The notes under the pieces are model-generated. The model worked only from the letters and a program-made list of their open reading frames with translations. It was not told the DNA's origin and ran no database searches. Source: Candidatus Binatia bacterium (GTDB taxonomy: Bacteria; Desulfobacterota; Binatia; Bin18). Taken from it: a stretch of 64,000 nucleotides of DNA. The DNA is taken from assembly GCA_963666315.2 (NCBI GenBank), contig CAXXHG010000041.1, positions 1 to 64,000 on the forward strand. Direction: 5' to 3'. Position numbers and translations under genes: made by a program. Positions 19,010 to 47,106 of this stretch are shown piece by piece; the first letter of the stretch is position 1; every line of letters starts with the position of its first letter.

Positions 19010-19570
19010 TCAGTCAGGCTTGCCCTGGTCTGGCAAGACGCAGAACCCCTGCGCTTCGACTAAGAACGCATGATTAAACTTACTCAGCAAATCCTCGATC
19101 ACGATCGTGGCATTTAATTCTACCAACGCGCGGTCAGAAAAGAGTGTTCTCAACTCGGTGAAGAATTCGTCTGAGACATCATCATCTGTGCGCACCATCT
19201 GCTCGGCAAATGCCAAGGCTGCTTTCTCGCGCTCCGTAAAGAGTGTACTGCCTTGATAGTTGTTCACCGCTTGTATTTTTTCGATCGCGGCCCCCGCTTT
19301 CATCCCCCCGGATGAATTGATGTCAATTCAAAAGGGACACCCATTGATGGAAGCGACACGCACCCGCACGAGGGAGCGCAGCTGCGCGTCGATCTCCTGC
19401 GCTTCTTCCAACGCCGCCGTTAATCCCCCCACGGCTTTCAAAAACGCGGGGAAGTGCACCATCAGCTTGGTCGGGTTGAGGACTGTGCCGAAGTTCTTCT
19501 CCATGGCGGCATACGCCCCCTGCAATTCTGGGCTGAGCTCGTCCTTTTCCAAATATCTGAGTCGCGGCAT
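19010..19570 (-). CDS. CMD/AhpD-family selenoprotein (CPFU), 186 aa, Sec at residue 81
   Basis: Track ORFs 19328-19570 and 19010-19303 are in frame across TGA 19330-19328: RVASINGCPF-U-IDINSSGGMKAG; SECIS-like hairpin follows. Confidence 0.88.
19299..19316 (-). promoter_or_regulatory. bacterial SECIS-like hairpin
   Basis: Starts 11 nt after the UGA: TTCATCC-GGGG-GGATGAA, a perfect 7-bp stem. Confidence 0.8.
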
Positions 19571-19647
19571 ACTGGCCTCCTTCTTTCTGACGCTCAGGGA
19601 GCGCCGCTCTTGATGGTATCAACCATCTATTCGTTGGCGTGTACGGC

Positions 19648-22600
19648 TCATGACAAGTCTGCCAGCAACGTTTTGGCGTCCTTCAAATCCGCCGTGTCAA
19701 ACCCTTCCGTGAACCAGTTGTAGACCGGGGCGAGGAGGTCGCAGGCTTCGGCTGTCTCGCTCTGCTTTTGCCACAGCCGGGCGAGGCTCGTCGCGGCGCG
19801 CAGTTCCAAGGATTTCGCTTGTTGGCTGCGGGCAATATCGAGAGCTTGCCGAAAATATTCTTCCGCTTCTTCTTCGCCGTTGAACCCTTCGACTTCGCTC
19901 AGGACAGGCTTGGAACTTTGAACCATTCGGCTCAGCTCAGGACCGGCTTTGAACTTTTGTAATATCAGCGCGCCCTTGAGCCGGTATAACTCCGCTTCGT
20001 AGAAGCGTTCCCCAGTTCTGTGCACGATCTCCATCGCCTCGGCCAACAAGGCAAGGCCCTCCTCAGCCTGTCCTGCCGGCCTACACGCTTCGACCAGCAG
20101 GGCAAGCCAATAGGAGTCAGACCCTTCTGCTCCCGTGGCCCGCCAACCGGCTCGGCCCTGGCGCATCTGCGCGATGCCAGCTTCGAACTGCCCACGCTCG
20201 GCCAGCGTCATGGCCTGGTGAATGCGCTCCAGGGCATGCGCCGCCATTGTTCGGATGGCCACGCCAGGGTCGAGGCCGTGGACAAACGCCTGACCGCGAT
20301 GCTGTTCAGGATTGTAGAGGCTACTCCCGTGCTCTAAGTGGTCACGCGCCCGGGAAAACTCACCCAACCATAACAGCGGCTCCCCCAGCGCCCGCTGAGC
20401 TGCCGACTGGAGCGCCAGGTCCGGTGCTGTCTGGGCGAGCGTGAAGAGCTGCTCCCCGAGCGCGCGCGCCTTCTGGTGCTCCGCGCGCAGGATGCACAGC
20501 TGCCACAGACCGTACAGCGCCGGGGCGAGCTGGGTCGGCTCGCCCACCTGCTCACACAAATCTCGCGCGCGTGTATAGGCCTGTTCTACTTCCGGATTCG
20601 TAAAGCCTTTGGTGGCCTGCAGCACTGATCCCAAGGTGATTTGGAGGGGGAGTTCGTGTTGGCTCCGGTCAGACGTGTCCGGCAGCGTCCGGAGCACCTC
20701 TATCGCGCTGGTCAGATGCCTCAGGGCTTCGTCATACGCGGAGCGTTGAAATGCCTGTTGCCCGGCGAAACCGAGATATACCACAGCCTTTTCCGCATTG
20801 TCTGTGTGGCTGTAGTGATGGGCCAGCTCGCTATAACGGTCTTCTACGTTGGCGCGGTAGAGCGCCTCAATCGCCTGTCCGGTTCGTTCGTGCAAGGTTT
20901 TGCGTTGCTCGTGGAGCACCGTCCCATACGCCACTTCCTGTGTCAGGGCATGCTTGAAGAGATAGTCTGATTCCGGGAATGCCGGCTGTTCGTACACAAA
21001 TTCTTTGGCCTGCAGGAAAGCTAAGATTCGATACAGTTCATCTTCAGACTGGGGAACAACCTGCTTCACCAGGCTCACGGGAAACTGCCGCCCAATAACG
21101 GAGAGCTGTTGCAGGAGTTCTTTTTCGTCGGCAGTTAAGCGGTCAATACGGGCGGCTAAGACTCCCTGCACGGTCGGTGAAATATGCAGTTCGGTTGGTG
21201 TTGTCTCTAAGCGATAGCCGCCTCTTTCTCCGACAAGTGCCCCTTCCTCAGCTAGGGTTTGGACGACTTCCTCCATAAAGAACGGCGTACCTTCCGTCTT
21301 GTCCAGAATGAGCGGCTTCAGAGCGGTCAGGCTCGCATCACTGCCGAGCAGAAACGTCAACAGTTCTTCTGCTTCGTCTTTGCCGAGCAGCGCTAATCGC
21401 AGTTGCGTGTAATATGTCTTCCGGCCCCACTCGTGCCGATACTCGGGCCGATAGTTCACCAAGAGCAGCACCTGAGTCGAAGCCACACTTTCCGCCAAGG
21501 TGTCCAAGAACCCCTGCGTTTCCGTATCGATCCAGTGTAGATCCTCAAAGATCAGCAGCACCGGTTGGTTCAGACTCTCGCGCAGGAACAATTGCTTGAG
21601 TGCCTCAAATGTCCGCCGCCGCCGGATCTGCGCGTCCATCTGCTGCAGCGAGGAGCCCGGGTCTTCAATGCCGAGCACCGCAAACAGATACGGCAGGACC
21701 TGTTCCAAACTCCGGTCCAGTTCCAGGACTTGGGCAATGACTTTCTGGCGGCGGGTGCGCTCCTCATCCTGCCGCTCGATCTGAAAGTAGTCCTTGAGCA
21801 GCTCAATGAGGGGCAGGCACGTCGAGGCCTTGCCATGCGAGACTGAGAACGCTTCGAGCACGAGACAGCCGTTCCGGGACGTGGGCTTGAACTCATAAAA
21901 CAGCCGTGACTTGCCGAGGCCTGCCTCTAATATCACACCCACGATCTGACCGTCGCCTTCTTTGGCTTGCGCCAACGCGCCTTGCATCTGGTCCAGCTCG
22001 CTGTGCCGCCCCACGAAACGGGTGAGGCCACGACGGGCCGAGACTTGCAGTCGGGTGCGGAGCGGCCCAGCGCCTAAGACCTCATACACGTTGAGCGGCT
22101 CTTCGACTCCTTTGATCTCCGCCTCCCCCAGCGCCTTGAGGTCAAAATATCCTTCGGTCAACTTGCGCGTATACTCGCTAATCACAATCGACCCCAGGTT
22201 CGCCATCTGTTCCATGCGAGCCGCAAGGTTCGTTGAGTGGCCCGCGGGGACGTAGTCGGTATGGAGATCATCTTTACGAATGGACCGTACTACCACTTCC
22301 CCAGTGTTAATGCCGACCCGCATCTACAGTGGGATGCCGTGTTTGAGTCAGACCTGGTCCGAATAGCCCCGCATCTCTTCCTGCATCCGCAGTGCCGCAT
22401 ACCGTGCCCGCTGCGGGTGATCTTCGTGCGCTATCGGCGCGCCAAATAGCGCAAAGATGCCGCAACCTAACATAGCCCTCATACCGATGCACCGCATCCA
22501 TCATCAGCTGCAGTGCTGGGTCGATAATGGCCCGGGCGTCTTCCGGGTCGAGTCCTTCGATGAGCGCCGTGGACCCCTTGAGATCCGCAAACAGCGCGGT

Positions 22601-22922
22601 GATGGTTTTGCGTTCACCGTCAGCACTGCCACGGGACTCCATGGTTTGCTGTTCGGCTCGGATACGCTCGGCCAGGTGTTGGGGCGTGTAGGTGGAGGGG
22701 GGTTGGGGACCGGGGGGAGGGTAATGTTCCTCCGTCGCCCGCCCAGACCAAGATCTTCGCACCTTCATCCACGGCTACTGCTTGTCCTTCGATCAGTTCA
22801 TCTCTGAGGTCTTCCAGGGTCTCGTCGTCCAACTCGAACTTACGCTGCAGAGAGCGATATCTCAGGCGTCCCTTACGCTGGAGCAACCCAGTGGCTTGAT
22901 CAATCAGTTCAGAAAATTTCAC
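19648..22922 (-). pseudogene. cyclase / STAND ATPase / TPR protein, copy 3, disrupted
   Basis: Frameshifts near 22.73 and 22.46 kb with the AQALGDG segment lost; altered Walker A (ILEAGLGKS); deletions in the TPR region. Confidence 0.85.
19886..19947. repeat. two 24-nt REP-derived units inserted in frame among TTGAAC heptamers
   Basis: 19886-19909 ccttcgacttcgctcaggacaggc and 19924-19947 cattcggctcagctcaggaccggc. Confidence 0.75.
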
Positions 22923-22982
22923 GGGCCGGACTCCCCCCCCCTGACAGGCCAACTCCGCATATCAAGGCTCAAAACCTTTCCA

Positions 22983-23059
22983 GATTCCCGTTTCCACGGA
23001 GTGACAATCCTCCCTATCATACCTGCGAAAGCAGGTATCCAGGTCTACGGGACAAGACG
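22983..23059. repeat. REP-like element (ATTCCC / CCTGCGAAAGCAGG family), copy 1
   Basis: Closely similar ~78-bp copy at 62916-62995. Confidence 0.8.
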
Positions 23060-23081
23060 AGCCGACGGTCCGGGTTTGACT

Positions 23082-23105
23082 TTTTTACAACCAGAGGTGT
23101 AAAAA
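23082..23105 (+). promoter_or_regulatory. probable TetR operator overlapping the promoter
   Basis: Palindrome TTTTTACA-N8-TGTAAAAA just after TTGACT and 5 nt before the tetR ATG; related site at about 23724-23743. Confidence 0.6.
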
Positions 23106-23110
23106 CAAGT

Positions 23111-23692
23111 ATGGTTCGACCACGAGAATTTGATGCCGACGTCGTCACTGACCGCGCCCTGAACCTGTTCTGGCACAAGGGGTATCAGGGCGCGTCGTTA
23201 GCCGACCTGGAGCGCGAGACCGGCGTCGGGCGCAAAGGGCTGTATAACACGTTCGGCAGCAAACAAGGCTTGTTTCTCGAAGCCCTCACCCGATATGAAA
23301 CGCGCGCTATTGAGCTAATCCTGGCACCGCTAGAATCGGAGGGCGCCGGGCGGGCCGCAATCGAACACGTCTTCCATATGCTCACGTCTCAAGAGGGACA
23401 GCTGAAAGGAAACCGCGGCTGCCTGTTCTGTCTGACGGCGGAGAGCGAGGTTACGAGTTCGCCGGAGGTCGCCAAGCGCGTCCGGGGCTATTTACGACGG
23501 CTCCAGCAGGGCTTCGCCAGCGCACTGCGGGGTGCACGGACAGCCGGAGACCTTGGCACGCAGAAAGATCTCGAAGCCTTGGCCGATTTTTTGATGGGCA
23601 CGGTGATGGGCCTGTCCGCGATGGCGCGCGCCGGCCGGCCTCGGACGCAGATTGTGCACTATATTGACACTGCCTTGGCCGCACTCGACTGA
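23111..23692 (+). CDS. TetR/AcrR family regulator (NemR/ComR-like)
   Basis: MVRPREFD...FWHKGY...LYNTFGSKQGLF and RGC. Confidence 0.92.
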   Translation: MVRPREFDADVVTDRALNLFWHKGYQGASLADLERETGVGRKGLYNTFGSKQGLFLEALTRYETRAIELILAPLESEGAGRAAIEHVFHMLTSQEGQLKGNRGCLFCLTAESEVTSSPEVAKRVRGYLRRLQQGFASALRGARTAGDLGTQKDLEALADFLMGTVMGLSAMARAGRPRTQIVHYIDTALAALD

Positions 23693-23775
23693 GTCTCGAC
23701 GGGGGAAATTTTTTTGCCTGATAAAACACCAGTCAGTGTAAAAAAGCTGAGATTTCGAAAGAGACGATAAAAATC

Positions 23776-24456
23776 ATGATTGATCTGTATACCGATTCCA
23801 CCCCGAACGGCTGGAAAGCCTCGGTGATGCTCGAGGAAATCGGCATGGAGTACACCACCCATCATGTTGACATCATGAGCGGCGCACAGAAGGAAGAGTG
23901 GTTCCTCAAGCTGTGCCCCAACGGCCGCATTCCGGTCATCGTCGACCGTGACAATGATGATTTGGCGATCTTCGAATCGGGCGCCATCATGCTCTACCTT
24001 GCAAAAAAGTCTGGCCAGCTCATGCCGCAGGATGACAAGGGCGAATCTCGCGTCACCCAGTGGCTCATGTTCCAGATGGCGGGGATCGGCCCGATGATGG
24101 GCCAGTCCAATATATTCTATCGCTACTTTCCCGAAAAACTGCCGTCCGTGATCCAGCGTTACCACAACGAGTGTCGTCGTTTATACGAAGTGCTCGACGG
24201 TCAGCTCGCAGGCCGCGATTACCTGTGCGACGAATACTCAATCGCCGATATCGCGAATTGGTGCTGGGTACGCATCCATTTCTGGGGCGGTACCAGCGTC
24301 GACGGCCTCGACAATCTCAAGACCTGGATGGAACGGCTCGAAGCCCGCCCAGCCTGCCAGCGCGGTGTTGTCGTGCCTTACGCTCCGGATTTCGCCAAGC
24401 TGGAAGCCGATCTCGAAAAAGAGGATAGCAGCGTACGTTCGCTCGTGACAAAGTAG
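23776..24456 (+). CDS. glutathione S-transferase (YfcG-like)
   Basis: Motifs TPNG, PNGRIP, FESGAI, QWLMFQM and YSIADI. Confidence 0.92.
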
Positions 24457-24545
24457 GAAACGGATAACGGGCAGGACGGCGGCCCTCGATTGAGCAGCGC
24501 CTGGGAAAATTTTTTGTCTAATAAAACACCAAGAGGAAGTGGATC

Positions 24546-26189: not shown

Positions 26190-26221
26190 CGGAGACAAGG
26201 AAAGGATGCCAGGAGGTAACG

Positions 26222-27457
26222 ATGGCACATATTCGAATCGTTAATGAAGACGAAGCCCAGGGGCAACTGGCGGAGGATTACGCCTATCTGTCCCGCTCGT
26301 ACTCCAATATGGTGGGGTCGGAGGTGACCACCCCCAACGTGTATCGCACGCACAGCATCGTGCCTGCTTACTTCCGCCTGGGCACCGTGACGAACCGGGT
26401 CCTGACCAACGACGGGCGTTTCGATCGGCCCAGTTGGCAGCAGGGGCCCGCGCCGGAATTCTTGGTCAACTTTGCCGTTGCCCTGCATAGCTCATGTTAC
26501 TATTGAACGGAAACAATTGGGGCCGTGATGCCCGAGCTCTACAGTGCCGAGGTCGGGCAGCAGATTCTCGACAACTATCAGGAAGCGGAGATTCCCGAGG
26601 TCCATAAGGAACTCTTTCATTGGGCGGAACTCTTTACGCAGCGCTCCTGGGACATGAGCGCCCAAGACCTCCAGCGTTTGCATACATATGGCCTCACGGA
26701 TGCAAACATCGTCGGCTGGGCGCAGGCGGCGTGTCTCCAGACGTGGTTTACGATGGGCGCGGAGGGCGGCGGCGTTCCGCTGGACAGCGACGCGGGGATG
26801 CAGCCCGTGTTCCAGAAGCCCCGCGAGTTTTACACCCAGGCCCCAGAAGGATTGACCGCGGCCGAGCCCAAACGCCCCAATTTTCATGCGCCGGACAGTG
26901 CAGAAGCCGTTGCCTGGGTGGCGACCGACGGCGACTCAGAAGAATATCAGCAAGCCGCGGCCTGGGCCGAGGCGCGCTACGGTTTCGTGCCCAATCTCCT
27001 CCAGGCGCTCTCGCTGCCGCCGGAATTCTTCCGGCGGCACACGTTGGCACTGGAACTTCTGGAGCGTCCCCAGACTGAGTCCCTAAGCCCACGCCAGCAT
27101 GCCATGGTGCGCGCGTTGGTGTCGACTCTGACGCGCTGCCAGTACAGTGCCGACACCACGCGTCGGCTCGTCGCGTCGGCCTGCGCGGAGCCCGGTCTGT
27201 ACGAGCGGCTAACGGAGGATTACCGCCAGCGCGAATGGGCGCCAGTGGATCGGGTCATCCTGGACTTTGCTACCAAGGTGGCCCGCAATGCGTACAAAGT
27301 GACGGAAGACGACGCTCAGCGGTTCCATGAGGTCGGGCTAGACGATGAGGCATATGTCGACGTGCTGAATACGGTGGCGATTCAAACGTCCTTCGACCGC
27401 CTCGCCAACAGTCTCGGCGTGCGCCCCGATCCGCGGCCGCTGTTGCCCCGAGTGTGA
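26222..27457 (+). CDS. two-domain AhpD-like selenoprotein (CYYU), 411 aa, Sec at residue 95
   Basis: AGGAGG RBS and ATG 26222; in-frame TGA 26504-26506 joins track ORFs 26183-26506 and 26525-27457 (VALHSSCYY-U-TETIGAV); second domain has RCQYS. Confidence 0.82.
26517..26535 (+). promoter_or_regulatory. SECIS-like hairpin (weak)
   Basis: TT(G)GGGC-CGTGAT-GCCCGA, loop G at +19 from the UGA. Confidence 0.55.
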
Positions 27458-27515: not shown

Positions 27516-28649
27516 ATGGCAACTATTTCTTATGCAGCAGCCAGCACCCCAGTGCGGGCAGATCTTGTCGAGGCGCATCAAAAGTTATGGCAAAACCTGG
27601 CTGAGCCGGGCACCTGGTGGACGGGGGCTGAGCGGGTCGCGATTGCCGCCGAGGTGCGCAAAGCGTGGACGTGTACCCTGTGCACGGACCGCAAAGCGGC
27701 GCTGTCGCCCTCAGCAGTCACCGGTGAGCACGATACCCACGGTGTCCTTCCGTCCGCCGTAGTCGAAATGATCCACCGCATCACCACCGATCCGGGCCGG
27801 CTGAGTAAGGACTGGTATGAGCGGCTCTTAGCCGAGGGTGTAGAGGATACCCATTATGTCGAGGCGCTGGGGGTCGTCGTGCGCACGGTCAGTATCGATT
27901 CGTTTTGTCGCGGCCTGGGTGTTCCCCTACATCCATTACCGACACCAATCCCAGGCGAACCGTCCCGTCGGCGGCCGCCGCAGGCCCACATGGAGGCTTC
28001 CTGGGTGCCGATGATTCCCAGCGGGCAAGAAACCGGCCCCGATGCTGATATCTACTGGGGCCAGCCTGCTCCAAATGTCATCCGGGCAATGAGTCTGGTC
28101 CCAGACGAAGTGCGCGCCAGTATCCATACTCTTATAGTGACGCACTACATGGAATTCGCCCAAGCCATGGATCCGACGACTAACGGCGGACGGGCTATTA
28201 GCCGCGCCCAAATCGAACTCTTGGCGTCGCGCGTCTCCGCACTCAATCAGTGCTTCTATTGAACGGCTGCCCATGTGATGCAGCTCCGGGGGAGCAGCCC
28301 AACAAGTGAAATTGATCTACATGCAGCCGTGAATGCTAACACAGAGAACGGCGTCCCTCACGGCGCCCTGCTGAATACGTTTGCCGAAGCCGTACTAGGC
28401 ACGGATGACGTGCAGCTCGACACGGTCCGAAACGCTATCGTCACAGAACTCGGCCCAGCCGCACTGGTCGATGCCGCCGCCGTGATCGGTGGATTTATGC
28501 AGATGGACCGCATCGCCGATGCTGCCGGAGTTCCGCTGGATGACTTTGTGGTCGAGGCCACGAATGATGTCCGTGAAGACCTCGGCCTCCACAATTTTGC
28601 TTCCGCGCGGAATACGCTAGGGGTCGCCGGAACTCCGGGAACTCTTTGA
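27516..28649 (+). CDS. alkylhydroperoxidase (AhpD)-related selenoprotein (CFYU), 377 aa, paralog A
   Basis: In-frame TGA 28260-28262 in IELLASRVSALNQCFY-U-TAAH matches the AhpD E...CxxC-xxx-H motif; joins track ORFs 27516-28262 and 28275-28649. Confidence 0.9.
28280..28298 (+). promoter_or_regulatory. SECIS-like hairpin
   Basis: GC(A)GCTCC-GGG-GGAGC(A)GC, loop at +26. Confidence 0.72.
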
Positions 28650-28748
28650 TGACGTCGAGGTGTTCCGGCCAGAAGGGTTTCGCAGTGTGAGTAATCGCGC
28701 GGCGACTTTTTATATCGGCGTAGGGCCGACAGAAAGGGAGGGAGTATC

Positions 28749-29879
28749 ATGACCACTATCTCGTATGCCAGCGCTAGCACCCCAGTGCGGGCCGATCTTG
28801 TCGAGGCGCACCAACAGTTGTGGCAAAAACTGGCTGAGCCGGGCGCCTGGTGGACGGGGGCCGAGCGGGTGGCGATTGCCGCGGAGGTGCGTAAAGCCTG
28901 GACATGCACCCTGTGCACGGACCGCAAAGCGGCGCTGTCGCCCTCTGCAGTCACCGGTGAGCACGATAATACCCACGGTGTTCTTCCGTCCGCCGTAGTC
29001 GAAATGATCCACCGCGTCACCACCGATCCGGGCCGGCTGAGTAAAGACTGGTATGAGCGGCTCGTCGCCGATGGTGTAGAGGACACTCATTATATCGAGG
29101 CACTCGGCGTTGTCGTCCGGACGGTCAGTGTCGATTCGTTTTGTCGGGGCGTGGGCATTCTCCCACATCCATTACCGACACCAATCCCAGGCGAACCGTC
29201 CCATCGGCGGCCACCACAGGCCCACATGGATGTCTCCTGGGTGCCCATGATTACTAGTGGTCAGGAAACCGGCCCCGAGGCCGATCTGTACTGGGGCCAG
29301 CCCGCCCCAAATGTCCTGCGGTCAATGAGTCTGGTCCCGGATGAGGTGCGTGCAAGTATGCATATTCTTATGGGGGCGCATTACATGGGACTCGCCCAGG
29401 CTATGGATCCGACGAGCAACGGAGGACGGGCCATCAGCAGAGCCCAGATCGAACTCTTAGCGTCGCGCGTCTCCGCGCTCAATGAGTGCTTCTATTGAAC
29501 AACCTTCCATGGCATGCTGCTCCGGGGGAGCAGCCCAACAGGTGAGATTGATCTGGATGCAGCCGTGAATGCGAGCACGGAGAACGGCGTCCCTCACGGC
29601 GCCCTGCTGAATACGTTTGCCGAAGCCGTGCTAGGCACGGACGACAAGAAGCTCGACACGGCTCGCAACGCCATCGTCGACGCCCTTGGCCCGGCAGCGC
29701 TGGTCGATGCCTCGGCTGTTATTGCGGCATTTATGCAAATGGACCGGATGGCCGATGCCACCGGAGTTCCGTTGGATGACTTTGTGGTCGAGGCCACGAA
29801 TGATTTCCGTGAAGACATCGGCCTCCACGCCTTTGACTCAGCACGGAATACGGTGGGGGACGCGGCAACTCTTCGTTGA
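28749..29879 (+). CDS. AhpD-related selenoprotein (CFYU), 376 aa, paralog B
   Basis: In-frame TGA 29496-29498 (NECFY-U-TTFHGML); the TGA is conserved with paralog A although flanking codons differ. Confidence 0.9.
29516..29534 (+). promoter_or_regulatory. SECIS-like hairpin
   Basis: Perfect 8-bp stem GCTGCTCC-GGG-GGAGCAGC, loop at +26. Confidence 0.8.
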
Positions 29880-31185: not shown

Positions 31186-32347
31186 ATGCAAAACGGCAAT
31201 GGCGCAATCACCACAGGGGCAATCGACGCGGATGGCCATGTTTTAGAGCCACCTGATTTATGGGAAACCTATTTAGAGCCCAAATATCGCGACCGGGCCC
31301 TACGGATTCGCACCAATAGGGATGCTGGAAATCCTTGAAATCGACGGCAAGCAATCCTGGACCGGTTATCCCGGTTTTCCCGGTCAGCTCGGTGGGATGG
31401 GCAAGGAGGACATCGATCCCCGGCCCGACCGAACATACTTGCGTGGCGCGCCGGCGGGTTCAATGGACCCCAAAGAACGGGTCGCCAGGTTAGATGAAGA
31501 AGGTTTGGCCAAGGCGATCTTATATCCTACTCTGGGACTCTTCTTGGGTGAGATTAAAGATCCCGAACTGGCCACGGCCCACTGTCGCGCCTACAACCGC
31601 TGGATCCTTGATTTCTGCTCAGAGTCTGGTGGACGGCTAATCCCTATCGCCCAAGTCACACTGGACGACGATCCGCATAACGCGGCTGCGGAGTGAGAAC
31701 GAGCAGTGAAAGACGGGGCCAAAGGAGGATTCTTTTTACCCTTTACTTGGAAAAAGCAGTCGCCCGGCCACCCACACTTCGATCCGTTGTGGGCGAAGGC
31801 CGAAGAACTCGGCGTTCCATTAGGCATCCATCCCACAGCCGATCCACCTGAACTCGATGTACATAAGAGGTTTTCCGAACTCGCGCAAGGTGATCAGTTC
31901 GACTTCACCTGGTATATGGACGTGCTCGTTTCCCAGGGCATGGTTCAGTCGTTTGTATCGCTCTTTCACTATGGCCTGTTCGATCGTTTTCCTCAGGTTA
32001 AATTGGTCGTGCTGGAATCCCAAGCAGGTTGGACCGGCCATATTTTGGACCGGATGGATGCCGTCTGGCGTAGCCCCTTAGGCAAAACCACCCGCATGAA
32101 GGAATCGCCCAAAACGTATTTTAATCGCCAGTGCTGGGTTTCTGCCGATCCGGATGAGCAGATGGCCTCGGCGGTGATTAACGCGGTGGGGAGCGATCGT
32201 TTCTTCTGGGCGTCGGATTTTCCGCATCCGGATCATATCAGCCATTACATGCAAGCCTTAGGCGATATGATCGCTCCGCTGTCGGAAGAATCACAACACC
32301 AGATTCTGTGGGAGAATGTGAGTAAGGCGTATAATTTGGGCGAGTAA
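31186..32347 (+). pseudogene. amidohydrolase with a frameshift (~31320) and a nonsense TGA (31694-31696)
   Basis: IDADGHVLEPPDLW at the start, WASDFPHPD near the end; AAAE*ERAVKDG. Confidence 0.8.
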
Positions 32348-32652: not shown

Positions 32653-33868
32653 ATGCACGACAACGACCAAGCCATGCGCGATTTTGCAGCGACCCTAGCG
32701 GTACCGGAATTCGAAGACACCGCTTTCACCACACCGCCGGCGCTCCGGGAGGCGCGCGTGGCAATCGTGACGAGCGCCGCGCTCAGCAGCAGCGGCTGGA
32801 TCTCACAGTGGCAGGCCGAAAAGTGGGATTTCGCAGATTTCCACTTCGAGACTCTCCCGCACGACGTACGCGATCTGGAGCTCGGCCACGTGAGTCCGAA
32901 CTTTGATCGCGCTGGCTTTGCCGCCGACCTGAACGTCGTTTACCCAGTCGACCGTCTGCAGGAACTGGCTGACCAGGGCGTGATCGGCAGTGTCGCGGCC
33001 TCCCATTACTCGTTCGCCGGCAACCAACCCGAGGGGCTGTCCGCGCTGCGGCTGGATACCGGACCGGCCTGCGCCAAAAAGATGCTCGAGGACGGAGTCG
33101 ACGTCGTTCTGCTCACCCCCGTCTGACCCCTGTGCCCGCGTACCGGGTGTACGCTCGCCCACGTCTTCGAGGCTGCTGGCCTGTCAACGGTCATAATCGC
33201 GTCGATACGCGACGTCGCCGAACGCATGCACCCACCGCGGGCGCTGTATGTGGAGTACCCGTTGGGGCTGCCCCTCGGAAAGCCGCGCGACGCCATGTTT
33301 CAGCACCGCGTACTCGAAGCGGCCTTTGCGCTGTTGGAGCAGCCCACGGGACCGGTCCTCGTGGACTTTCCGGAGACGATCCAAAGCAAGGGCGGTGAGC
33401 CGTTGGCGTGCGCCCTCCCCCCCCCCCCGCTACGACCCGAACTTGCACCCGGCCATCGACGAAGCACAGGCGCTGCGCGGTGCATATAATCGAGCCGTGG
33501 CGAAAAATGGGCGGACCAGCGTGGGACGGGCGATCACTGCGGAACAGATTCCTGGAGCCATTGAGAAGTTTGTTCAAATCACCGACGGCCAAGCCTGGGA
33601 TCAGGTTGGGTTTAACGCCCCGCTGATGCAGGTGACGACTGATATCCGGGCGTACTACGAAGAGCTAGCTGTCGAGTTGGTGGACGGTGGTCCGATTGCG
33701 GCATGGGGCGCCGAGCGCTGGTTCTACGATAAGACCGAGGCGGGTAAGGTGTTGTTAGCGGCGCGCGAGGAGCTAAAGAAGGCCGGCGCACCGTTCCTGA
33801 TCTGGTGGCATATGGCGCCGGGGTCGCGCCAGTCCGGTATGGAGCAAATGAAGAATGTCTCGGTGTGA
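32653..33868 (+). CDS. GrdB/PrdB (selenoprotein B)-like selenoprotein, UxxC, Sec at residue 158; frameshift in a C12 run at 33417-33428
   Basis: DLNVVYPVDRLQEL...GVIG...DGVDVVLLTPV-U-PLCPRTGCTLAHVFEAAGLSTV...HPPRAL...PLGLPLG; TGA 33124-33126 is in frame with ORF 33226. Confidence 0.85.
33138..33154 (+). promoter_or_regulatory. SECIS-like hairpin
   Basis: Starts 11 nt after the UGA: GCGTAC-CGGGT-GTACGC. Confidence 0.78.
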
Positions 33869-36049: not shown

Positions 36050-39000
36050 TCACGGACATTGCGACTCGGCGCGTTCTTCTTCCCGCTTGCCCTGTTGCTG
36101 CCACAGTCGTGCGAGACTCGTTGCAGCGCGCAGTTCCCACGATTTGGCGGCTTGCCTCTGCGCAATGGCTATCGCCTGCAGAAAGCAGGCTTCAGTCTCG
36201 GCGGCGTTGGAGTGTGACTGCTTGAGCAACAGCTCTCCCTTGAGGCGATACAGCTCTGCCTCATAGTAACGCTCCTCAGTGCTCTCGACAAAAGCCAACC
36301 CCTCGACCACCGCTCCGAGCCCTTCCTCAACCTGCCTGTCTTGCCCGTAGGCCTCGGCCAATAAGGCAAGAAAATGCGGCCGCAAGAACTCTGCCCCGAT
36401 AGCCCGCCAGGCAGCCAGATTCTCGTGGATCTGCTTGAGGCCTTCCGCTGGGTGTCCTTGCTCGGCCAGCGCCCAGCCCCGGAAGATCGTGCCTTCTCCC
36501 AAGAAGAACGGAAACCCCCGCTCGGTGGACAGCGCGATGACCTCCTCCGTCCGGCCCTGGGCAGCCTGCGCCTCCCGGCGCAACTGATGGAGCCGGACAG
36601 CAAAGGTCAAGGCAAACGCGAGACTAAAGGGGGGAGACAGGTCATGGGCCAGACGCTGGGCCTCGTGGCTTGTCTTTAGGGCCTGGTCCGGATAGCCCAG
36701 AAGCCATAAGACCTCGGTCCTATAGGTGAGACACGCGACCCCAGGGTCAAACGACCCATAGCTGAACGCCAAAGAGTGGTGCTGCTGCGCGTCGTAGAGT
36801 GGACTCCCGTGCTCCAGGTGGGGGCGGGCCGGGGCCAGTTCTCCCAGGTGGGCCAAAGAGAGTCCTACCGCATAATGAGCCTCTACGAGAAGAGCGGAGT
36901 CGGACCCGGTTTGAGCCAAGTGCAGCAGTTGCTCGGCCAGTTCGTGCGCCTCCTTGTGCTCCGCCCGGACGAGATAAAACGCCCACAGCCCCCACAGCAC
37001 CGGGAAAAGTTCAGGCGTGTCCCCCACTTGTTCACACAGCTCCCGGGCCCTCAGGTAGATACTCCCCACTTCTGGGGCCGCGTAACTCTGGGTGGCCGTG
37101 AGCGACGGGCCCAAGGCCACGTGCAGCGCGAGTTCGTGCTGCCAGCGCGCTGGACTGTCCGGCTGGGTCTGGAGCAGCTCGAGGGCCGTGGTGAAGTGTC
37201 TAATCGCTTCGTCATTCGCCGCCCGCTGCACGGCCTGGTGACCGGCTAATTCGAGATACTCGACGGCCTTCTCCGTGTTCCCACTGCGGCTATAGTGATG
37301 CGCCAGTTCACTGTAGTGATCGACCACACTCGTTCGATACAACCCCTCCATCGCCTGGCCCGTCCGCTCATGCAAGGTCTTGCGCTGCTCCTGCAGCACG
37401 GTGCCATACGCCACATCTTGGGTCAGCGCATGCTTGAAGAGATATTCCGATTCGGGGAAGGCGGGTTGTTCATACAGAAACTCTTTCGCTTGCAGAGACG
37501 CTAAGATCTGATGCAGCTCGTCCTCCGTTTGCGGCACCACCGCGTGTACCAGGCTCACGGGAAACTGCCGACCTATCACCGAGAGCTGTTGCAGCAACTC
37601 TTTTTCCGCTGCCGTCAGCCGGTCAATCCGGGCAGCCAATACGCCTTGAACAGTGGGAGAGATATGAAACTCAGTTGGCGCCGTCTCCAACCGATAATGA
37701 CCTGGCTCACCGCTGAGAGCCCCGTCTTCCGCCAACGTCTGCACCACCTCTTCCATGAAGAATGGCGTCCCTTCCGTCTTCTCTAAGATGAGCGGCTTGA
37801 GCGGCGCCAGACTGGCATCGTTTCCAAGTAAGAAGGAGAGCAGCTCTTCCGCCTCTTCTTTTCCCAGGGGCGTCAGGCGCAGCTGGGTGTAATACGTCTT
37901 CCCACCCCACTCATGTCGATACTCAGGCCGGTAGTTTGTGAGCAGTAAGAGCTGGGCTGAGGCAATATTTTCACTCAGCGTATTCAGGGCGCCCTCTGTC
38001 TCAGTGTCGAGCCAATGCAAGTCCTCACAGATGAGAATAAGCGGCTGGTTAAGGCTCTCGCGCAAAAACAGTTTCTTGAGCGCTTCAAACGTGCGCTGGC
38101 GCCGAATCTGGGCATCCATTTGCTGCAGGCTCAACTGTTCATCTTCAATGCCAAGCAGAGAAAAGAGATACGGTAGGGTCTCTTCGAGACTGCGGTCTAA
38201 GCCTAGGACCTTCCCAATGAGGCGTTCGCGCCGACTCCGTGCATCGTCCTGAGGCTCGATCTGACAATAATTTTTAAGCAGTTCAATGAGTGGGAGATAG
38301 GGCGATGATTTGCCGTGCGAGACGGCAAACGCTTCCAGCACCAGACAGCCACTTGGTGACGTGAGCTTGAACTCGTGGAACAGTCGAGACTTGCCTAGCC
38401 CCGGCTCACCCATCACCCCGACGATTTGCCCGTGGCCCGCTTTCGGCTGCGCGAGTGCCTGCTGGATCTGGTCCATCTCGGTATGGCGCCCTACAAAGCG
38501 GCTGAGTCCGCGCCGCGCGGACTCAGCCGCGTCCTCAACGGACCCGCGCCGATGACCTCGTATACGTTGAGCGGTTCTTCGACGCCTTTGATTTCAGCAG
38601 CACCGAGCGCCTTCAGGTCAAAATACCCCTCCGTTAACTTCCGGGTGTATTCGCTGATCACAATCGACCCGGGGTTGGCCATCTGTTCCATGCGAGCGGC
38701 GAGGTTTGTTGAGTGGCCCACGGGCACGTAGTCGGTATGCAAGTCGTCTTTGCGAATGGACCGCACCACGACTTCCCCCGTGTTGATGCCTACTCGCATG
38801 TGGAGGGGAACACCGTGTTTGAGGCGGACTTGATCGCTATACCCCCGCATCTCTTCCTGCATCCGCCAACGCCGCATACAATGCCCGTTGCGGATGATCC
38901 TCATGCGCTATCGGCGCCCCAAACAACGAAAAGATGCCGTCCCCCAACGCCTGCGCCACGTAGCCGTCATACCGATGCACGGCGTCCATCATGAGTTGCA

Positions 39001-39424
39001 GTGCAGGGTCAATGATGGCTCGTGCGTCTTCGGGGTCTAAGCCTTCGATAAGAGCAGTGGAGCCTTTGAGGTCGGCAAACAACGCCGTGATTGTTTTGCG
39101 CTCACCGTCTGCTGCGCCACGGGATTCCATGGCCGCTTGTTCGGCGCGGATACGCTCGGCCAGGTGGTGTCGCGTGTACGTTGAGGGGGATTGGGGTTGC
39201 GGCTCGGGTCTGGACGATACTGGGGCTGGCTCCCCGTTACCAGTCCAAACGAGGATTTCTCCGCCTTCGTCCGTGGCTACCCGCTCCGCTTTGATCAGCT
39301 CATCCTTCAAGACGTCCAGGCGTTCGTCGTCCAAGTCAAATTCTAACTTGAGCGCGCGATACGTTACCCGCCCCTTCCCCTGGAGCAGTTCCTTCGCTTC
39401 TTTGACGATCTCCGAAAATCTCAC
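36050..39424 (-). pseudogene. cyclase / STAND ATPase / TPR protein, copy 4, disrupted
   Basis: Frameshifts at ~38870 and ~38520; the C-terminal FTEGFDT tail is missing. Confidence 0.85.
38498..38530. repeat. perfect 15-bp inverted repeat at a frameshift site
   Basis: GCGGCTGAGTCCGCG-CCG-CGCGGACTCAGCCGC. Confidence 0.85.
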
Positions 39425-39628
39425 AGACGGGACTCCCCTTACAGACAGACTGAGCCGATAAGAGCAGGAAATGGGCGAGAGGAGAACTCGACGCGCGGTG
39501 TCTCGATTCTGTTGACCTTGACCCTTCGCCACGCCATACTCAGTTCTATACGCAGCCTTGCGGCCCGTCGTCTTTTAAACGGTATGCGCGTTTGGAGTAG
39601 ATAATCGTCCGGTTATGAGAGGAGAACG

Positions 39629-40399: not shown

Positions 40400-40408
40400 A
40401 TCGCAAGA

Positions 40409-40900
40409 TTACAATTGAACGGACTTATTCTTATGGCCCGCCCACTTCGGCAGACCATCGGTCATATCCATCACCCGCATCCCATAGAAAATATGACACG
40501 TGGGTTTGAAGCTCGGTGGCACCTGGGGCGGGTGCCCAAAATCAAATAGGGAGGGAAACGCCAGCCACATCGTGCGGCCTTCATCCGCAATCAGCGTTCC
40601 ACACCCGGCACAACTGACTTTGCAGGGCAAAATACGCTCACGCTGATCAAGCTCGCTATTGTAGAAACGGAGCTGATCGAGGCCTTGCGTAATGCGAACG
40701 TGGCGTTTGTGAAAGATGGCCGCCCACTGCATGGGCGCGCCGTGCAGCTTCTGGCAGACCACGCAGTGGCAGATTTTCGCGTCCACCGGATCTGCGCTCA
40801 CTTCGTACTGGACGGCCTGACACTGACACCTGGCGTGGTATTTTGCCGTAAACGTCTCATCCCCAATCGATGCAAATACTACTCCAAATTCTTTTTGCAT
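40409..40900 (-). CDS. GFA / CENP-V family Zn-dependent protein
   Basis: Motifs CQC, CHCVVCQK and CAGCGT; the track's longer N-terminus is repeat sequence. Confidence 0.85.
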   Translation of the reverse strand: MQKEFGVVFASIGDETFTAKYHARCQCQAVQYEVSADPVDAKICHCVVCQKLHGAPMQWAAIFHKRHVRITQGLDQLRFYNSELDQRERILPCKVSCAGCGTLIADEGRTMWLAFPSLFDFGHPPQVPPSFKPTCHIFYGMRVMDMTDGLPKWAGHKNKSVQL

Positions 40901-40917
40901 AGTGACGCTGCCATCTA

Positions 40918-41047
40918 GAAGGTGTTTGGAAAAGGGAGAGGTGGTGTCATTGCGAGGAGCCGTAGGCGACGAAGCAATCTCTTTTCCCGCTACGGATTGC
41001 TTCGCTTCGCTCGCAATGACGTGTACCGCGACTTTCCAAACACCCTC
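40918..41047. mobile_element. MITE-like element with 15-bp TIRs enclosing a REP-like doublet
   Basis: GAAGGTGTTTGGAAA ... TTTCCAAACACCCTC with TA on both flanks; second copy at 48481. Confidence 0.7.
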
Positions 41048-41178
41048 TATCAAGTTTTGCACGGGTCGCAGATGCGGTGTGAGAGAGACTTCATCATTCC
41101 TCACACTACGTGAGGTTTATACTCCGTCTTGACTACGTGACACTACCTAACGAAGGCATGCCGCGAAGGCCCATGCGG

Positions 41179-42834: not shown

Positions 42835-42907
42835 CTTGACAGTACCTGGCTGGGTGCTTGATCCTCGTATCCCCTGGTAAATTCCGGTTGCTCACCTAGC
42901 TCGCGAC

Positions 42908-43342
42908 TTAGGCCCGGCGGGCCATATGCTCGTCAAATAGGGACTCTTTCCCGCGGACTCTCTTCATTTCTACCATCAGCGGCTCCAGAACCTCGCGATC
43001 CCAATAGTCGTGCCAGCGGCAGATCTTCCCCTCACTATTAAATTCAAACATGCCCATGCAGGGGAGGTGAATGGTGACGTCGCCTAAAGCCCACGTTTCG
43101 AGCCGGACGTTCATGACGATATTCCCCGAGGACGCGGTGTGCTTGATATCCATTTTTTGCAGCATCCCCGCGTCAATCCATTCGCCTAACATCTCCTGGA
43201 CACCGGCATGCCCGGTCGACTGCGACGTGCCGATATTTTGATAATCCACATCCTCTGACAGATGTTGTACGCTCTTGGCCGGATTAGCCTCTTCTAAAGA
43301 ATGACAGTAATCCGTTACTTTCTTTTCGTTCTCAGCGCTCAT
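42908..43342 (-). CDS. limonene-1,2-epoxide hydrolase / SnoaL-like protein
   Basis: YQN, VMNVRLE and LPCMGMFE...GKICRWHDYWD. Confidence 0.8.
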   Translation of the reverse strand: MSAENEKKVTDYCHSLEEANPAKSVQHLSEDVDYQNIGTSQSTGHAGVQEMLGEWIDAGMLQKMDIKHTASSGNIVMNVRLETWALGDVTIHLPCMGMFEFNSEGKICRWHDYWDREVLEPLMVEMKRVRGKESLFDEHMARRA

Positions 43343-43443
43343 AAGGTCCTCCTGTATTGCCTTTTGCCCTCGTGCCCGGGTGTGACCCATTAAATTCCGG
43401 TGAAACTTTCCCCCTCGTTTGTTTACTTGCACCCTCGCTGCCG

Positions 43444-44148
43444 CTACAGGCTTTTTCCCGGTACGACCAGTTCATTGGCCCACTGGTCAAGCTCTCGCTT
43501 TACGTCATCTAGCGTGTCGCGGCTGGCAACTAAATTAATCTGGTCGGCCCCGGCATCCCGATACTGTTTGACGGTGTCCAAGGTCACATCTTGCAATGGC
43601 GCCGCATGAATTTTGATCTCGTCCATCGTTCGACCGTATTCGGCGAGCAGCGGTTTCAGTTTATCGACACCCGCCTGTACCTCGTCGGGCCGGTCTACGC
43701 CGTACCAACCGTCGCAATGCTTCGCCACACGCCGCAACGCCGCGAGGGATTCGCCGCCAGAATAAATCGGCGGATGGGGGTGCTGGATCGGTTTTGGGTA
43801 CAGGTGACATTCGGGCAGGGTGTAGAATTCTCCCTTAAACTGGGACGGTCCCTCGGACCACAGGGTTTTCACGATCTCGATATATTCATTGGCACGCGCG
43901 CCGCGTCTCTGCCACGGAATCCCAAGGGCATCGAATTCTTCCCTCAGCCAACCGATCCCAATGCCGAAGTCGAACCGTCCGCCGGAGAGGACATCCAAGT
44001 CGGCAACGTGTTTGGCGGTATAAACCGGATTGCGCTGGGGTATGAGGCAGATACCCGTGGCTAACCGCAGGGTGGTCGTCGTCGCCGCGATAAAGGAGAG
44101 CGCGGTAACCGGCTCTAGAAAATTAACAGCTGGCGAAGAAAAAGGCAT
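43444..44148 (-). pseudogene. LLM class F420-dependent oxidoreductase, 5'-truncated
   Basis: Motifs LDVLSGGRFDFGIGIGW and PKPIQHPHPP; the N-terminal strand and ExH motif are missing. Confidence 0.75.
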
Positions 44149-45002
44149 TCCTGAACGAAATGACCTGCGTGTTCCAAATAGAGTGGCGGTGGACAACCAC
44201 GAATGACGCTATGTAGCTCGTCCATAACGGGTTTGCCCAAGACAGGGTCTTACAGCCCCACGGCCATGAAACTTTTACCGGTCCATTCCTCCGCCCAGAA
44301 CTGTCTCGCGCGTTGGCATTCTTCAACGCCTTGCATCTCCGGCTCCACGGGGACGAGCTGCGGAAAGCGCCGTACGCCGGCCTGATAGCTCGCGTCGGGG
44401 AAGGGAGCCGCGTACGCAGCGATGTCCATCCAGTCGAGTGCGTCCGGACAACTCACACCCATCAGGCCGGAAACAGGAAGGTCGGTGAACTGAGCGGCAT
44501 AGGCTTTCCATTGGGCAAAACCATCGCTGATGGGTTTACCGACAGGCAGACCGGTATTCATAACGATCAGACGCTTGAATCGTTCCGGCATGTCGAGCGG
44601 GAAGGTTAGCCCCAATATGCCACCCCAGTCCTGGCAGACCAGCGTAATATTTCGTAAGTCAAGGTGTTCGATGAGCCGTAGCAGCGAGTTGCGGTGAAAC
44701 GAAAAGGTGATGTCGTGGTCGTTGACGGGTTTATCCGACCTACCAAAACCGAACCAATCAGGTGCAACAATTCGGCCGCCCGCGCTCAGAAAGGGCGGGA
44801 TCATTTTTCGATACAGGTAACTCCAAGTTGGCTCACCATGCAGACACAGGTAGACATCCTTCGCTATTGGAGACCCTTCGTCGATGTAGTGCATGCGACA
44901 GCCTTCGTATCCCGGCAGTGTTTCTACGTAGTGCGGGGCGTACGAAAAATTCGGCAAGTTCGCAAAGCGTTCTTCTGGCGTTCGTTTGCATAGAATACTC
45001 AT
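44146..45002 (-). pseudogene. haloalkane dehalogenase (DhlA-like) with an in-frame TAA and truncated end
   Basis: Motifs HGEPTWSY and QDWGG; continues VGL*DPVLG...AGHFVQE and runs directly into LLM sequence. Confidence 0.8.
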
Positions 45003-45105
45003 AGCGCAGCCTCCCAATGATACGACAACGTAGACACAACACCGGTTCTTCTCGATCTTGGGCTCGTCTGTTACTCGCCTGGATGATCTCCCACCGCTCC
45101 AGGGT

Positions 45106-45501
45106 TCATCCGTAATTGCCGAACGTCTTACGGCCGGGCCAGTCTGTAAAGTCGGCGTAGGTGCGGTCCAGGACGATTTTGCCGTCGCGCATGGTCAACA
45201 CGGCCACGAATGGGATCGACCAATCGTCACCCTTGTCCGGGTCGAGGAGGGTGACTTCAAGAATCACGACATCGCCGCTGACGTGCATGTGTTCGAGCCG
45301 CATATAGCGTTTAGGCGCCGCGGCATGAATGGCCTGCTCGAGTTGCAGCCAATCCTCAGTGTTGGCAGGCGCGACGGCGCCCATCCCGTACACTGTGCAA
45401 TCCGGGGTGTAGCATTCGCGCACGTAGCGATCGATGTCGGTGTTGTACAGCTCGATGTGGCGCTTGGCGTTTTCGATATTGCGTTGTTCCTCTTCCGTCA
45501 T
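45106..45501 (-). CDS. SnoaL-like / NTF2 family protein
   Basis: VLTMRDGKIVLDRTY. Confidence 0.78.
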   Translation of the reverse strand: MTEEEQRNIENAKRHIELYNTDIDRYVRECYTPDCTVYGMGAVAPANTEDWLQLEQAIHAAAPKRYMRLEHMHVSGDVVILEVTLLDPDKGDDWSIPFVAVLTMRDGKIVLDRTYADFTDWPGRKTFGNYG

Positions 45502-45559
45502 GGGATATCTCCTGTGTGGAACAGACCTCCTCTCGGTCCTGTTCCGCTGATGCGGCGGG

Positions 45560-45931
45560 TTAATTCCAGCCCGCATTATCAATCATATATTCCCAACTCC
45601 CGTCCGCTTGGCGTCGTACCACCTCCGTCCCATTGCCCGACATCGAAACCGCCTGCCCATCCGGAGTCGTGCCCGACAGCGTCCACGGAGAGTTCAAGAG
45701 CGCAATATCGCCGTTCTGCGTCACCGTGGCTTCAATCGTGAAATGAAGCTTCTGCGCGAAAAACCCGCGCATAATTTCCCGAATGGCAGCCCTTCCTCTG
45801 GCGACCCGGCCCCCCTCCTGCACAAAGGCGGCGTCCTCCTCGTAGAGCGACACTAAGCCCTCAAGGTCGCCGGTATTAAACGCTTCCATAAAGAGGCGGT
45901 CACAATCTTCGGGTTTATGTGCCACTGCCAT
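45560..45931 (-). CDS. DUF4440 / SgcJ-like NTF2 protein
   Basis: AFNTGDLEGLVSLYEEDA and EVVRRQADGSW. Confidence 0.85.
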   Translation of the reverse strand: MAVAHKPEDCDRLFMEAFNTGDLEGLVSLYEEDAAFVQEGGRVARGRAAIREIMRGFFAQKLHFTIEATVTQNGDIALLNSPWTLSGTTPDGQAVSMSGNGTEVVRRQADGSWEYMIDNAGWN

Positions 45932-45949
45932 CGGACACCACCGTTCGTG

Positions 45950-47106
45950 TTACGAGTCTTCCTGTCGGCATGCCACCAGTTGGGCCATATACGCTCCGGT
46001 CTGGACCGGGCTGACCCGCAGGCCCCTGTCTTGGAACGGCGGCAAGTCGGGAACAATGCCCTGGGCAAGCGGCAACTCTAGCGAGACGTTTACGGTGCGC
46101 TGCAGAAAACACTCACGCTTACTACACGATTGGTAGCCGATGGTGAGATCAAGCCTGATTGTCTTCTGGTCTAGAGGCTTGAGCACGTTGAGCAGTTCAG
46201 TCGTCGCGGTAATGGGGATCCCAATATCGACCGTCCCTTCCCAGGCAGGCAATTCCAGCCCCAGTTCCTCCATCACCAGCGGCGTGGCAGCTGGATACAC
46301 CGGCTGCCCGAGACGTATCCCAGGCACTGCCTTGACAGTCACCTGCGTTGCCACAAAACCACTGGGAACTGGTTCGGCGTAGATATGCAGGCCTTCCCGA
46401 ATGTCGAGCCGACAGTACAGTCGACGGGTCAACTCGATCTTCAGATCTCCCCCAGAGAGAAAGACGGAGACACGAACGTCGCCGTCTCGATATTCCTGCT
46501 GCGGCGCATCTGGGCTCAGGACAATCTGCCCACCCGCTTCTTCGAGGAAGCGTTCGGGCACGTCACGGGTGGCGAGATGTTGGTTGAAATATTTCCTGAC
46601 AACTATCCCCGACGCATCCACGATATAGGTTCCGGGGAACGGGATGCCGTAGAACACCTCGGCGTCCGCTCCGTCGGATCGATCAAGGTGTTCAGGATGC
46701 CAAAGCGCGTAATGACCGCGGAGTCGCTGTCTGACAACAGATCGTAGGTAATACCGTACGTCCGGGCAAAATCCGCCAGCCCGTCTTGGGGATCATAGCT
46801 CACCGCAAAGACTTTCATCCCGGCGGCCTCAAAGTCCGGCAAGCGACGTTGCAACTCCACGAGTTGCGTCATGCAGGACGGTCACCACACGGCCGAGCGT
46901 TGAAAACTGAGCACGGCTTTGTGCTGGCCGCGGGCGGCGTGGAAGTCGATCAGCTCGCCGTGTTGATTCGGGAGCCGGAACTCCGGTAGGCGGTCTCCTA
47001 CCGCTGGGCCGGTTGAGAAATCCGGATCCGGAATGCGCCGGGCAGGATGCTCCACAGGCGCAGGACCAACAAAGCCAAACTCATCTTGGAAGCCTTCACT
47101 CTCCAT
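45950..47106 (-). CDS. peroxiredoxin-like (AhpC/TSA) selenoprotein, UxxC, Sec at residue 75, fused to a DsbD N-terminal-like domain; one frameshift at ~46665
   Basis: GPAVGDRLPEFRLPNQ...FQRSAVW-U-PSCMTQLVELQ...AVSYD...LLSD, then GIPFPGTYIVD...GLHIY...YQSCSKRECF; TGA 46884-46882. Confidence 0.83.
46845..46870 (-). promoter_or_regulatory. SECIS-like hairpin
   Basis: Starts 11 nt after the UGA: GAC-GCAACTC-GTG-GAGTTGC-(AAC)-GTC. Confidence 0.8.

Follow-up and report, generated by a model that had tools for sequence, protein, structure and literature searches.

A 64,000-nucleotide (nt) stretch of DNA from Candidatus Binatia bacterium (assembly GCA_963666315.2, contig CAXXHG010000041.1, positions 1 to 64,000 of the forward strand), hereafter the window, carries between positions 19,010 and 47,106 six genes that are each interrupted by an in-frame TGA codon and that we interpret as putative selenoprotein genes (Table 1). 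Writing U for selenocysteine (Sec), they encode an AhpD/CMD-family protein with a CPFU motif, a two-domain AhpD-like protein with a CYYU motif, two copies (a and b) of a CFYUT-type protein, a PrdB/GrdB-like protein and a Prx-like protein fused to a DsbD_N-like domain. The listing of open reading frames (ORFs) and their translation show that at all six TGAs two same-frame ORFs of one protein are joined when TGA is read as U; codon-usage coding potential is positive on either side of the TGA in every gene, and in all six a Pfam or NCBIfam domain covers or borders it. The Pfam CMD domain lies across the CPFU TGA and matches the CFYU pair more weakly, GRDB ends just upstream of the U-PLC TGA, and AhpC/TSA spans the U-PSC TGA. 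The terminal stop is itself TGA in four of the six genes (CPFU, CYYU and both CFYUT copies). The initial annotation, made from the sequence alone, had located the six TGAs with the frame continuing past each and had assigned every one to a cysteine slot of a redox motif; translation and a re-check of the triplets bore out the former, and the TGAs do occupy the position of a redox-motif Cys at all six sites, and other homologs of the CPFU and CYYU proteins have Cys at the column.

Table 1. Coordinates of the predicted selenoprotein genes, their TGA codons and downstream hairpins, and of two related features of the window (aa, amino acids).
Feature	Position	Strand	Remarks
CPFU AhpD/CMD-family gene	19010..19570	-	186 aa, Sec at residue 81
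CPF-U TGA	19330..19328	-	...NGCPF-U-IDIN
CPFU hairpin	19299..19316	-	7 bp, loop GGGG, 11 nt past UGA
CYYU two-domain AhpD-like gene	26222..27457	+	~411 aa from ATG 26222
CYY-U TGA	26504-26506	+	...SSCYY-U-TETI
CYYU hairpin	26520..26533	+	4 bp, loop CGUGAU, 13 nt past UGA; weakest of six
CFYUT-type gene, copy a	27516..28649	+	377 aa, Sec at residue 249
CFY-U TGA, copy a	28260-28262	+	...QCFY-U-TAAH
CFYUT hairpin, copy a	28280..28298	+	7 pairs, one A-A mismatch, loop CGGGG
CFYUT-type gene, copy b	28749..29879	+	376 aa, 85% identical to copy a
CFY-U TGA, copy b	29496-29498	+	...ECFY-U-TTFH
CFYUT hairpin, copy b	29516..29534	+	7-8 bp
PrdB/GrdB-like gene	32653..33868	+	motif VUPLC; frameshifted in assembly
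U-PLC TGA	33124-33126	+	...TPV-U-PLCP
PrdB-like hairpin	33138..33154	+	6 bp, loop CGGGU, 11 nt past UGA
12-C run in PrdB-like gene	33417..33428	+	codes for Pro stretch; site of frame break
Prx-like gene (AhpC/TSA, WUPSC) fused to DsbD_N-like domain	45950..47106	-
U-PSC TGA	46884..46882	-	...AVW-U-PSCM
Prx-like hairpin	46851..46867	-	7 bp, loop GUG, 14 nt past UGA
In-frame TGA in amidohydrolase_2 gene 31322..32347	31694..31696	+	non-Sec

Four of these genes belong to the AhpD/CMD group. The CPFU protein matches Pfam CMD (PF02627) with 50.5 bits against a cut-off of 23, and scores 44.6 against 81.8 for TIGR01926 and 130.8 bits for NF053654 (YciW-related (seleno)protein), under the cut-off of 310. 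The C-terminal domain of the CYYU protein is a TIGR01926 domain (131 bits, cut-off 81.8) with no PF02627 match, and its Sec lies ahead of that domain, in an additional N-terminal AhpD-like domain. Both CFYUT copies contain the CFYUT motif and match NF041238 (AhpD_rel_CFYUT, an alkylhydroperoxidase-related (seleno)protein family) at 473.4 (a) and 458.9 (b) bits, the cut-off being 175; their PF02627 scores are 25.9 for copy a, above 23, and 20.1 for copy b, below it. The CYYU gene and the two CFYUT copies form an adjacent array of AhpD-like paralogs in which the CFYUT pair is a tandem duplicate.

We compared the window with contigs of other runs (X1, X2, X3 and X5), using Logan contigs and not reads. 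One X2 contig skips 1236 bases at 28514-29751, between the CFYUT copies, which may reflect a single CFYUT copy in some populations or collapse of the duplicate by the assembler. Among the 120 database homologs listed for the CYYU protein, 117, mostly ~310 aa long, span just 64-74% of its length, and one aligned homolog begins immediately past the TGA; such short coverage would be expected if gene callers stop at the TGA. The earlier statement that standard annotation fragments these genes agrees with these partial entries.

The PrdB-like protein matches Pfam GRDB at 43.4 bits (cut-off 22), and its NCBIfam scores are below the cut-offs (TIGR04483, 111.8 against 300; TIGR01917, 47.2 against 602; TIGR01918, 57.5 against 65.45); a C-terminal part of ~150 aa has no family match, and no solved structure matching the protein by sequence was found. 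Whereas orthologs have open frames of ~395 aa, comparison with them places 32653-33399 of the window gene in frame 1 and 33422-33832 in frame 2. The break falls at a run of 12 C, and this region has 4 bases fewer in the X1 and X2 contigs, restoring the frame; one near-identical contig has 2 gap letters there. The run may represent either a homopolymer tract of variable length or an artefact of sequencing. Neither PrdA/GrdE-type proteins (Gly_reductase, PF09338) nor GrdA (PF04723) were matched in the 92%-complete genome, in a search in which control genomes also gave no match. The PrdB-like protein probably does not act as a reductase of proline or glycine.

The Prx-like gene, whose product has a thioredoxin-like WUPSC motif, matches PF00578 at 83.3 bits (cut-off 26), and the ORF at 45950..46657 matches DsbD_N at 27.7 bits, the DsbD_N-like domain carrying a C-x4-C pair. 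A 1-nt deletion at ~46667 splits the gene in the assembly; the X1 and X2 contigs have the base, while X3 and X5 contigs give little or no cover near it. The X1 and X2 contigs and a related genome (G009, locus L057) are without two bases at 46501, so the DsbD_N-like part is broken there. In G024 (L058) the gene is disrupted elsewhere, and in G037 (L059) it is intact, at 412 aa. The three distinct disruptions (in the source genome, G000; in G009, X1 and X2; and in G024) indicate either decay of the gene within the lineage or indel errors in the assemblies, and the fusion may be a selenoprotein gene in the course of being lost.

Selenocysteine decoding

The source genome (4.99 Mb in 47 contigs, 92% complete) contains selA, an adjoining tRNA-Sec with anticodon tca, a SelB-specific wing domain within a 645-aa frame, and selD, so that all four components proposed earlier as a check are present. 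The selD match (L003, G000:C28:39602-40519) lies within a 761-aa open frame without stops, which suggests a fused, Cys-type SelD like the Ndh-SelD described in the accessible part of the Global Ocean Sampling (GOS) paper (PMC2398784).

We compared each gene with its homologs by six-frame searches of 40 relatives (41 genomes counting the source genome). All 30 CFYUT matches with E <= 7e-30 in the 41 genomes have exactly one TGA, and U occupies the Sec column in each of the 13 aligned CFYUT homologs. The CPFU alignment, built from 11 of 12 loci (L023, a fragment with 4 TAG, was omitted), has U at this column in 9 sequences and Cys in 2. For the PrdB-like gene, U is found in 8 of 8 aligned sequences and, by motif scan, at 12 of 12 loci, the other four (L047, L049, L051, L052) having been omitted from the alignment as near-duplicates. 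The Prx-like alignment comprised 10 of 12 loci, leaving out L058 (fragmented) and L066 (a duplicate of L065), and all 10 have U where WUPSC is matched with WUPxC. The TGA column is retained across other species, genera and families, down to 36-47% protein identity.

No full-length CYYU relative was found among the 40 relatives. A wider search located the gene in 3 of 301 genomes of the class (2 of the 300 others), with one TGA in each; in the full-length genomic homologs, L104 and L105, a stop/TGA falls in the column that holds the TGA of the source gene. In a large protein collection, two near-full-length CYYU proteins (P0058 and P0108) have Cys at the Sec column, and a third (P0067) is without that segment. 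Aligning the CFYUT profile with the solved AhpD structure 6k40 brought the Sec column onto the second Cys of its CVYC (CxxC) motif. The UGA/Cys pairing sought in homologs was accordingly recovered: the TGA column is kept, and Cys occurs in CPFU and CYYU homologs and, through 6k40, opposite the CFYUT Sec.

Downstream of the UGA, at 11-20 nt, all six genes have a hairpin of 4-8 bp whose loop contains G, resembling a selenocysteine insertion sequence (SECIS) and matching the G-looped hairpins that had been reported after each TGA. Among 9 CPFU homologs, compensatory changes occur at 6 of the 7 pairs, the position of the stem remaining constant as its sequence varies. In CFYUT, both sides have changed at 2 of 7 pairs, with several further G-C to G-U changes. 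The Prx-like hairpin, read by eye, is kept in L059 and L060 with an A-U to G-C change, and that of CYYU recurs at equal distance in L105 as a 5-bp GGGGC/GCCCC stem.

Given the presence of the decoding machinery, a conserved TGA column that pairs with Cys, and SECIS-like hairpins after it, we conclude from the sequence comparisons that the six TGAs are selenocysteine codons, the selenium content of the products being a prediction. A very different picture emerges from the TGA at 31694 in an amidohydrolase_2 gene. This codon stands opposite Leu in all 8 paralog alignments shown and reads TTA in contigs of X1, X2, X3 and X5, including contigs nearly identical to the window; no hairpin was found after it (-3.2 kcal/mol, z +1.76). 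This TGA stems from a nonsense change or from an error of assembly and is not a Sec codon, unlike the six in every respect, and as the one case examined it fits the initial annotation's statement that the other in-frame stops of the window fall at non-Cys positions. The ~50 tblastn matches to the amidohydrolase_2 protein genome-wide form a paralog family of unusual size.

The nonsense TGA at 31694, the two frameshifted Sec genes, the fragmented cyclase and luciferase-like genes and the many 1-nt indel differences between the window and other contigs would all be in keeping with an origin of the six TGAs, too, by nonsense mutation or misassembly in genes undergoing decay. We regard this explanation as extremely improbable: TGA is retained at the six columns across many species, to identities as low as those given above, the codons are always at a redox Cys position and are followed by conserved hairpins, and TGA 31694 has none of these features. 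The claim that the pattern is not random decay stands on the same contrast. General reassignment of TGA in this organism, for instance to Trp or Gly, would account for the many in-frame TGAs across the genus and is likewise barely credible, given that TGA serves as the terminal stop in four of the six genes, that in-frame TGAs are confined to Cys-type positions and that tRNA-Sec and selA/selB/selD are present.

The earlier view of the organism as selenoprotein-rich holds at the genome level. A scan combining coding potential and self-homology returned 130 rows, mostly off-frame paralog noise, from which 26 were chosen by motif and tested against NCBIfam, and 23 were retained. With the six of the window, the genome has at least 29 Sec genes, a lower bound since singletons without paralogs are missed by self-homology. 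Those beyond the window comprise five UGSC-family genes, one WAxxUGC ResA-like, five AhpD/CMD-like, four WUPxC Prx-like, three Prx with a GUT motif, three PrdB-like, one DsbA-like and one rhodanese gene. The least certain member is L087 (WUPPC), which has no NCBIfam match and was retained on its motif and a U-U alignment. A separate motif-plus-hairpin scan gave 28 candidates, 19 of them already in the self-homology list.

Candidates rejected or set aside in these scans were L101 and L102, which had no family match and a garbage-like sequence, the other 9 motif-plus-hairpin candidates, which were without convincing redox context, and L103 (G000:C15:199319-200275), an alpha/beta hydrolase gene with HGFPQC-TGA-YLWR for which 18 alignments were non-Cys and 2 Cys. 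Judging by the motif, the L103 TGA is probably a Trp codon turned stop, and so a further in-frame TGA that is not Sec. The genome is Sec-rich but not exceptional, and lies below published records: the largest selenoproteome is put at 39 in the accessible part of a 2022 review (PMC9312934), and an excerpt of the BSepDB paper gives 46-63 for the top ten.

Genomic context and interpretation

Taken together, these data make it very likely that the six TGAs are Sec codons in genes of four known selenoprotein types and that their grouping is a local accretion, not a dedicated system. By analogy with the standard bacterial mechanism, SelB with Sec-tRNA(Sec) would bind the hairpin behind the UGA and insert Sec, and the same genes would terminate at ordinary UGA stops that have no hairpin. 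Sec would replace one Cys of a two-residue redox motif, and for this reason the products are predicted thiol/selenol oxidoreductases. The local concentration would be the product of lineage-specific accretion and duplication, within a region of oxidoreductase and xenobiotic-type genes that is rich in paralogs.

Several observations weigh against this interpretation. With two of the six genes (PrdB-like and Prx-like) broken in the assembly, by frameshifts that are either assembly errors or real decay, not all six need give full proteins. Cys homologs of the PrdB-like and CFYUT proteins were not seen in the genome searches, so that Cys pairing rests on the 6k40 alignment for CFYUT and on a GOS table, in the accessible part of PMC2398784, for the PrdB-like protein. 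The PrdB-like stem is invariant in 11 of 12 loci, one base differing in L055, and thus gives no covariation evidence; the CYYU hairpin has only 4 bp and a z of +0.71. Folding energies overall are no better than those of dinucleotide shuffles (z -1.81 to +0.71), and because of this the hairpins by themselves would prove little; what gives them weight is that homologs keep their position and show compensatory changes. Finally, when 29 loci were placed at random 20,000 times, six never fell within 28 kb, whereas four, the number with the three-gene array counted once, did so in 158 of the 20,000 trials. Since the grouping is statistically unusual, it hints weakly at some functional or regulatory link among the six genes. 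We consider the grouping real but modest.

Such a link is the core of an alternative in which the Sec genes form a functional, co-regulated, selenium-dependent redox or detoxification island with their neighbours. Besides the density above chance, the gene content would suit it, the neighbours being two glutathione S-transferases (GSTs), an F420H2-dependent quinone reductase, a PNPOx-like protein, monooxygenases of the luciferase-like and FMO types, short-chain dehydrogenases/reductases (SDRs), GFA, an LEH-like protein, hydrolases and TetR, and pairs of Prx-like and AhpD-like neighbours are reported from metagenomes in the accessible parts of PMC2398784 and PMC13188914. In three congeners (G001, G018, G004), moreover, the CFYUT gene adjoins an SDR ortholog and FMO genes. 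The arrangement argues otherwise. The Sec genes are divided between the two strands, with two broken cyclase-AAA-TPR genes, pseudogene-like fragments, and truncated and unrelated genes intervening. The six-gene set is not conserved: only CFYUT and PrdB-like genes recur in the three congeners, 33-46 kb apart, and the CPFU, CYYU and Prx-like genes were not found in the congener regions examined. No conserved neighbour within 1.5 kb of CFYUT was found at nine loci from several families, and the CYYU gene is nearly absent from the other genomes of the class. Given the ~50 amidohydrolase paralogs, oxidoreductase neighbours may also be common anywhere in the genome. The single strand and the gene order conserved across lineages that mark a selenoprotein operon or system are not seen here, and we therefore judge the island unlikely. 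The initial annotation was right that GSTs and F420/flavin enzymes are interspersed with the Sec genes, and its possible selenium-based redox or detoxification system is not upheld, with the genes on both strands and synteny not kept in the three congeners. More doubtful still is the conjecture that the Sec-dependent thiol oxidoreductases of the 28-kb zone, gathered by lineage-specific accretion next to flavin/F420 oxygenases, GSTs and GFA, would act as a co-regulated module quenching peroxides and electrophiles during the oxidation of refractory organic matter, with the variable poly-C tract switching the PrdB-like gene on and off.

Further features of the region were noted. The two cyclase-AAA_16-TPR (adenylate/guanylate) genes, at 19648-22768 and 36050-39532, are split into two and three ORFs, respectively, and the second has 1-nt indels relative to other runs' contigs at 36151, 37009, 38271 and 38866. 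A palindromic repeat of ~115-135 nt occurs at ~40915-41050 and 48481-48593 and in 14 further stretches, on 11 contigs, at 82-97% identity (repeat contigs C4, C8, C15, C16, C17, C21, C28, C38, C39, C43). This repeat explains a 10-15-fold depth peak and many loose contig ends at 40990-41050, and it overlaps the 5' part of the GFA ORF, so the GFA gene probably starts further in. Contigs that carry the stretch come from numerous studies of seawater, marine and marine-sediment metagenomes. Named relatives point to different phyla: a contig encoding a 95%-identical CFYUT protein is assigned to Chloroflexota, the nearest named SelA matches (~80%) are from Candidatus Binatia and 'Deltaproteobacteria' genomes, and those of ribosomal protein L2 are from Methylomirabilota (78%) and 'Deltaproteobacteria' (75%).

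Relation to known selenoproteins and operons

The six genes are new members of known selenoprotein families, involving no new mechanism or family. According to the accessible parts of a marine survey (PMC2398784) and of a 2026 review (PMC13188914), the most abundant marine families include AhpD-like 1 and 2 (CxxU), PrdB (UxxC) and Prx-like 1 (UxxC), in line with the earlier statement that AhpD/CMD, GrdB and Prx-like families have Sec members. The genes had been called hidden, which is apt for annotation, where they are split, and not for knowledge, the families being long known from those surveys; the family tables in the supplement of PMC2398784 and BSepDB may list these exact subfamilies. 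Beyond one reference-list entry, we found no literature linking Binatota/Binatia to selenoproteins, and none linking SAR202 to them; BSepDB may already hold such genomes. The locus illustrates how automatic annotation splits or truncates selenoprotein genes, the CYYU relatives being one example, and extends the list of Sec-rich bacteria by an uncultured marine lineage whose genomes have ~30 Sec genes each.

Like AhpD-like 1 and 2 (GOS, Sargasso Sea) and NF041238, which appears under the name 'hypothetical protein 1, Sargasso Sea' in the accessible marine selenoproteome literature (PMC2398784, PMC13188914), the AhpD-like proteins of the window have a CxxU motif in which Sec replaces the second Cys of the AhpD CxxC, and share a marine origin; the CFYUT copies score above the NF041238 cut-off. 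The CPFU and CYYU proteins differ from known AhpD selenoproteins, the former in falling below the NF053654 and TIGR01926 cut-offs, the latter in carrying Sec in an extra N-terminal domain and in being sporadic in the class (2 of 300 others). The PrdB-like protein resembles PrdB and GrdB of D-proline and glycine reductases in its Pfam GRDB match, its UxxC motif and the placement of Sec at the end of the Pfam model, and differs in scoring below the PrdB, GrdB and TIGR01918 cut-offs and in its extra C-terminal ~150 aa. The Prx-like protein has the AhpC/TSA fold and WUPxC motif of Prx-like 1 selenoproteins (pfam00578, UxxC). Fusions of thioredoxin-fold selenoproteins to extra Cys-bearing domains are described in the accessible part of PMC2398784; compared with the fusion forms of Prx-like 1, the domain fused here is DsbD_N-like with a C-x4-C pair.

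As a group, the genes resemble multi-selenoprotein operons (grdAB, prdBC, frhA-frhD-hdrA, SAO, Tso) in that several Sec genes lie close together, and the SAO operon, as described in the accessible part of PMC13188914, also has six. In contrast to those operons, the six genes of the window have no common strand, conserved order or shared pathway, and three of them constitute a paralog array.

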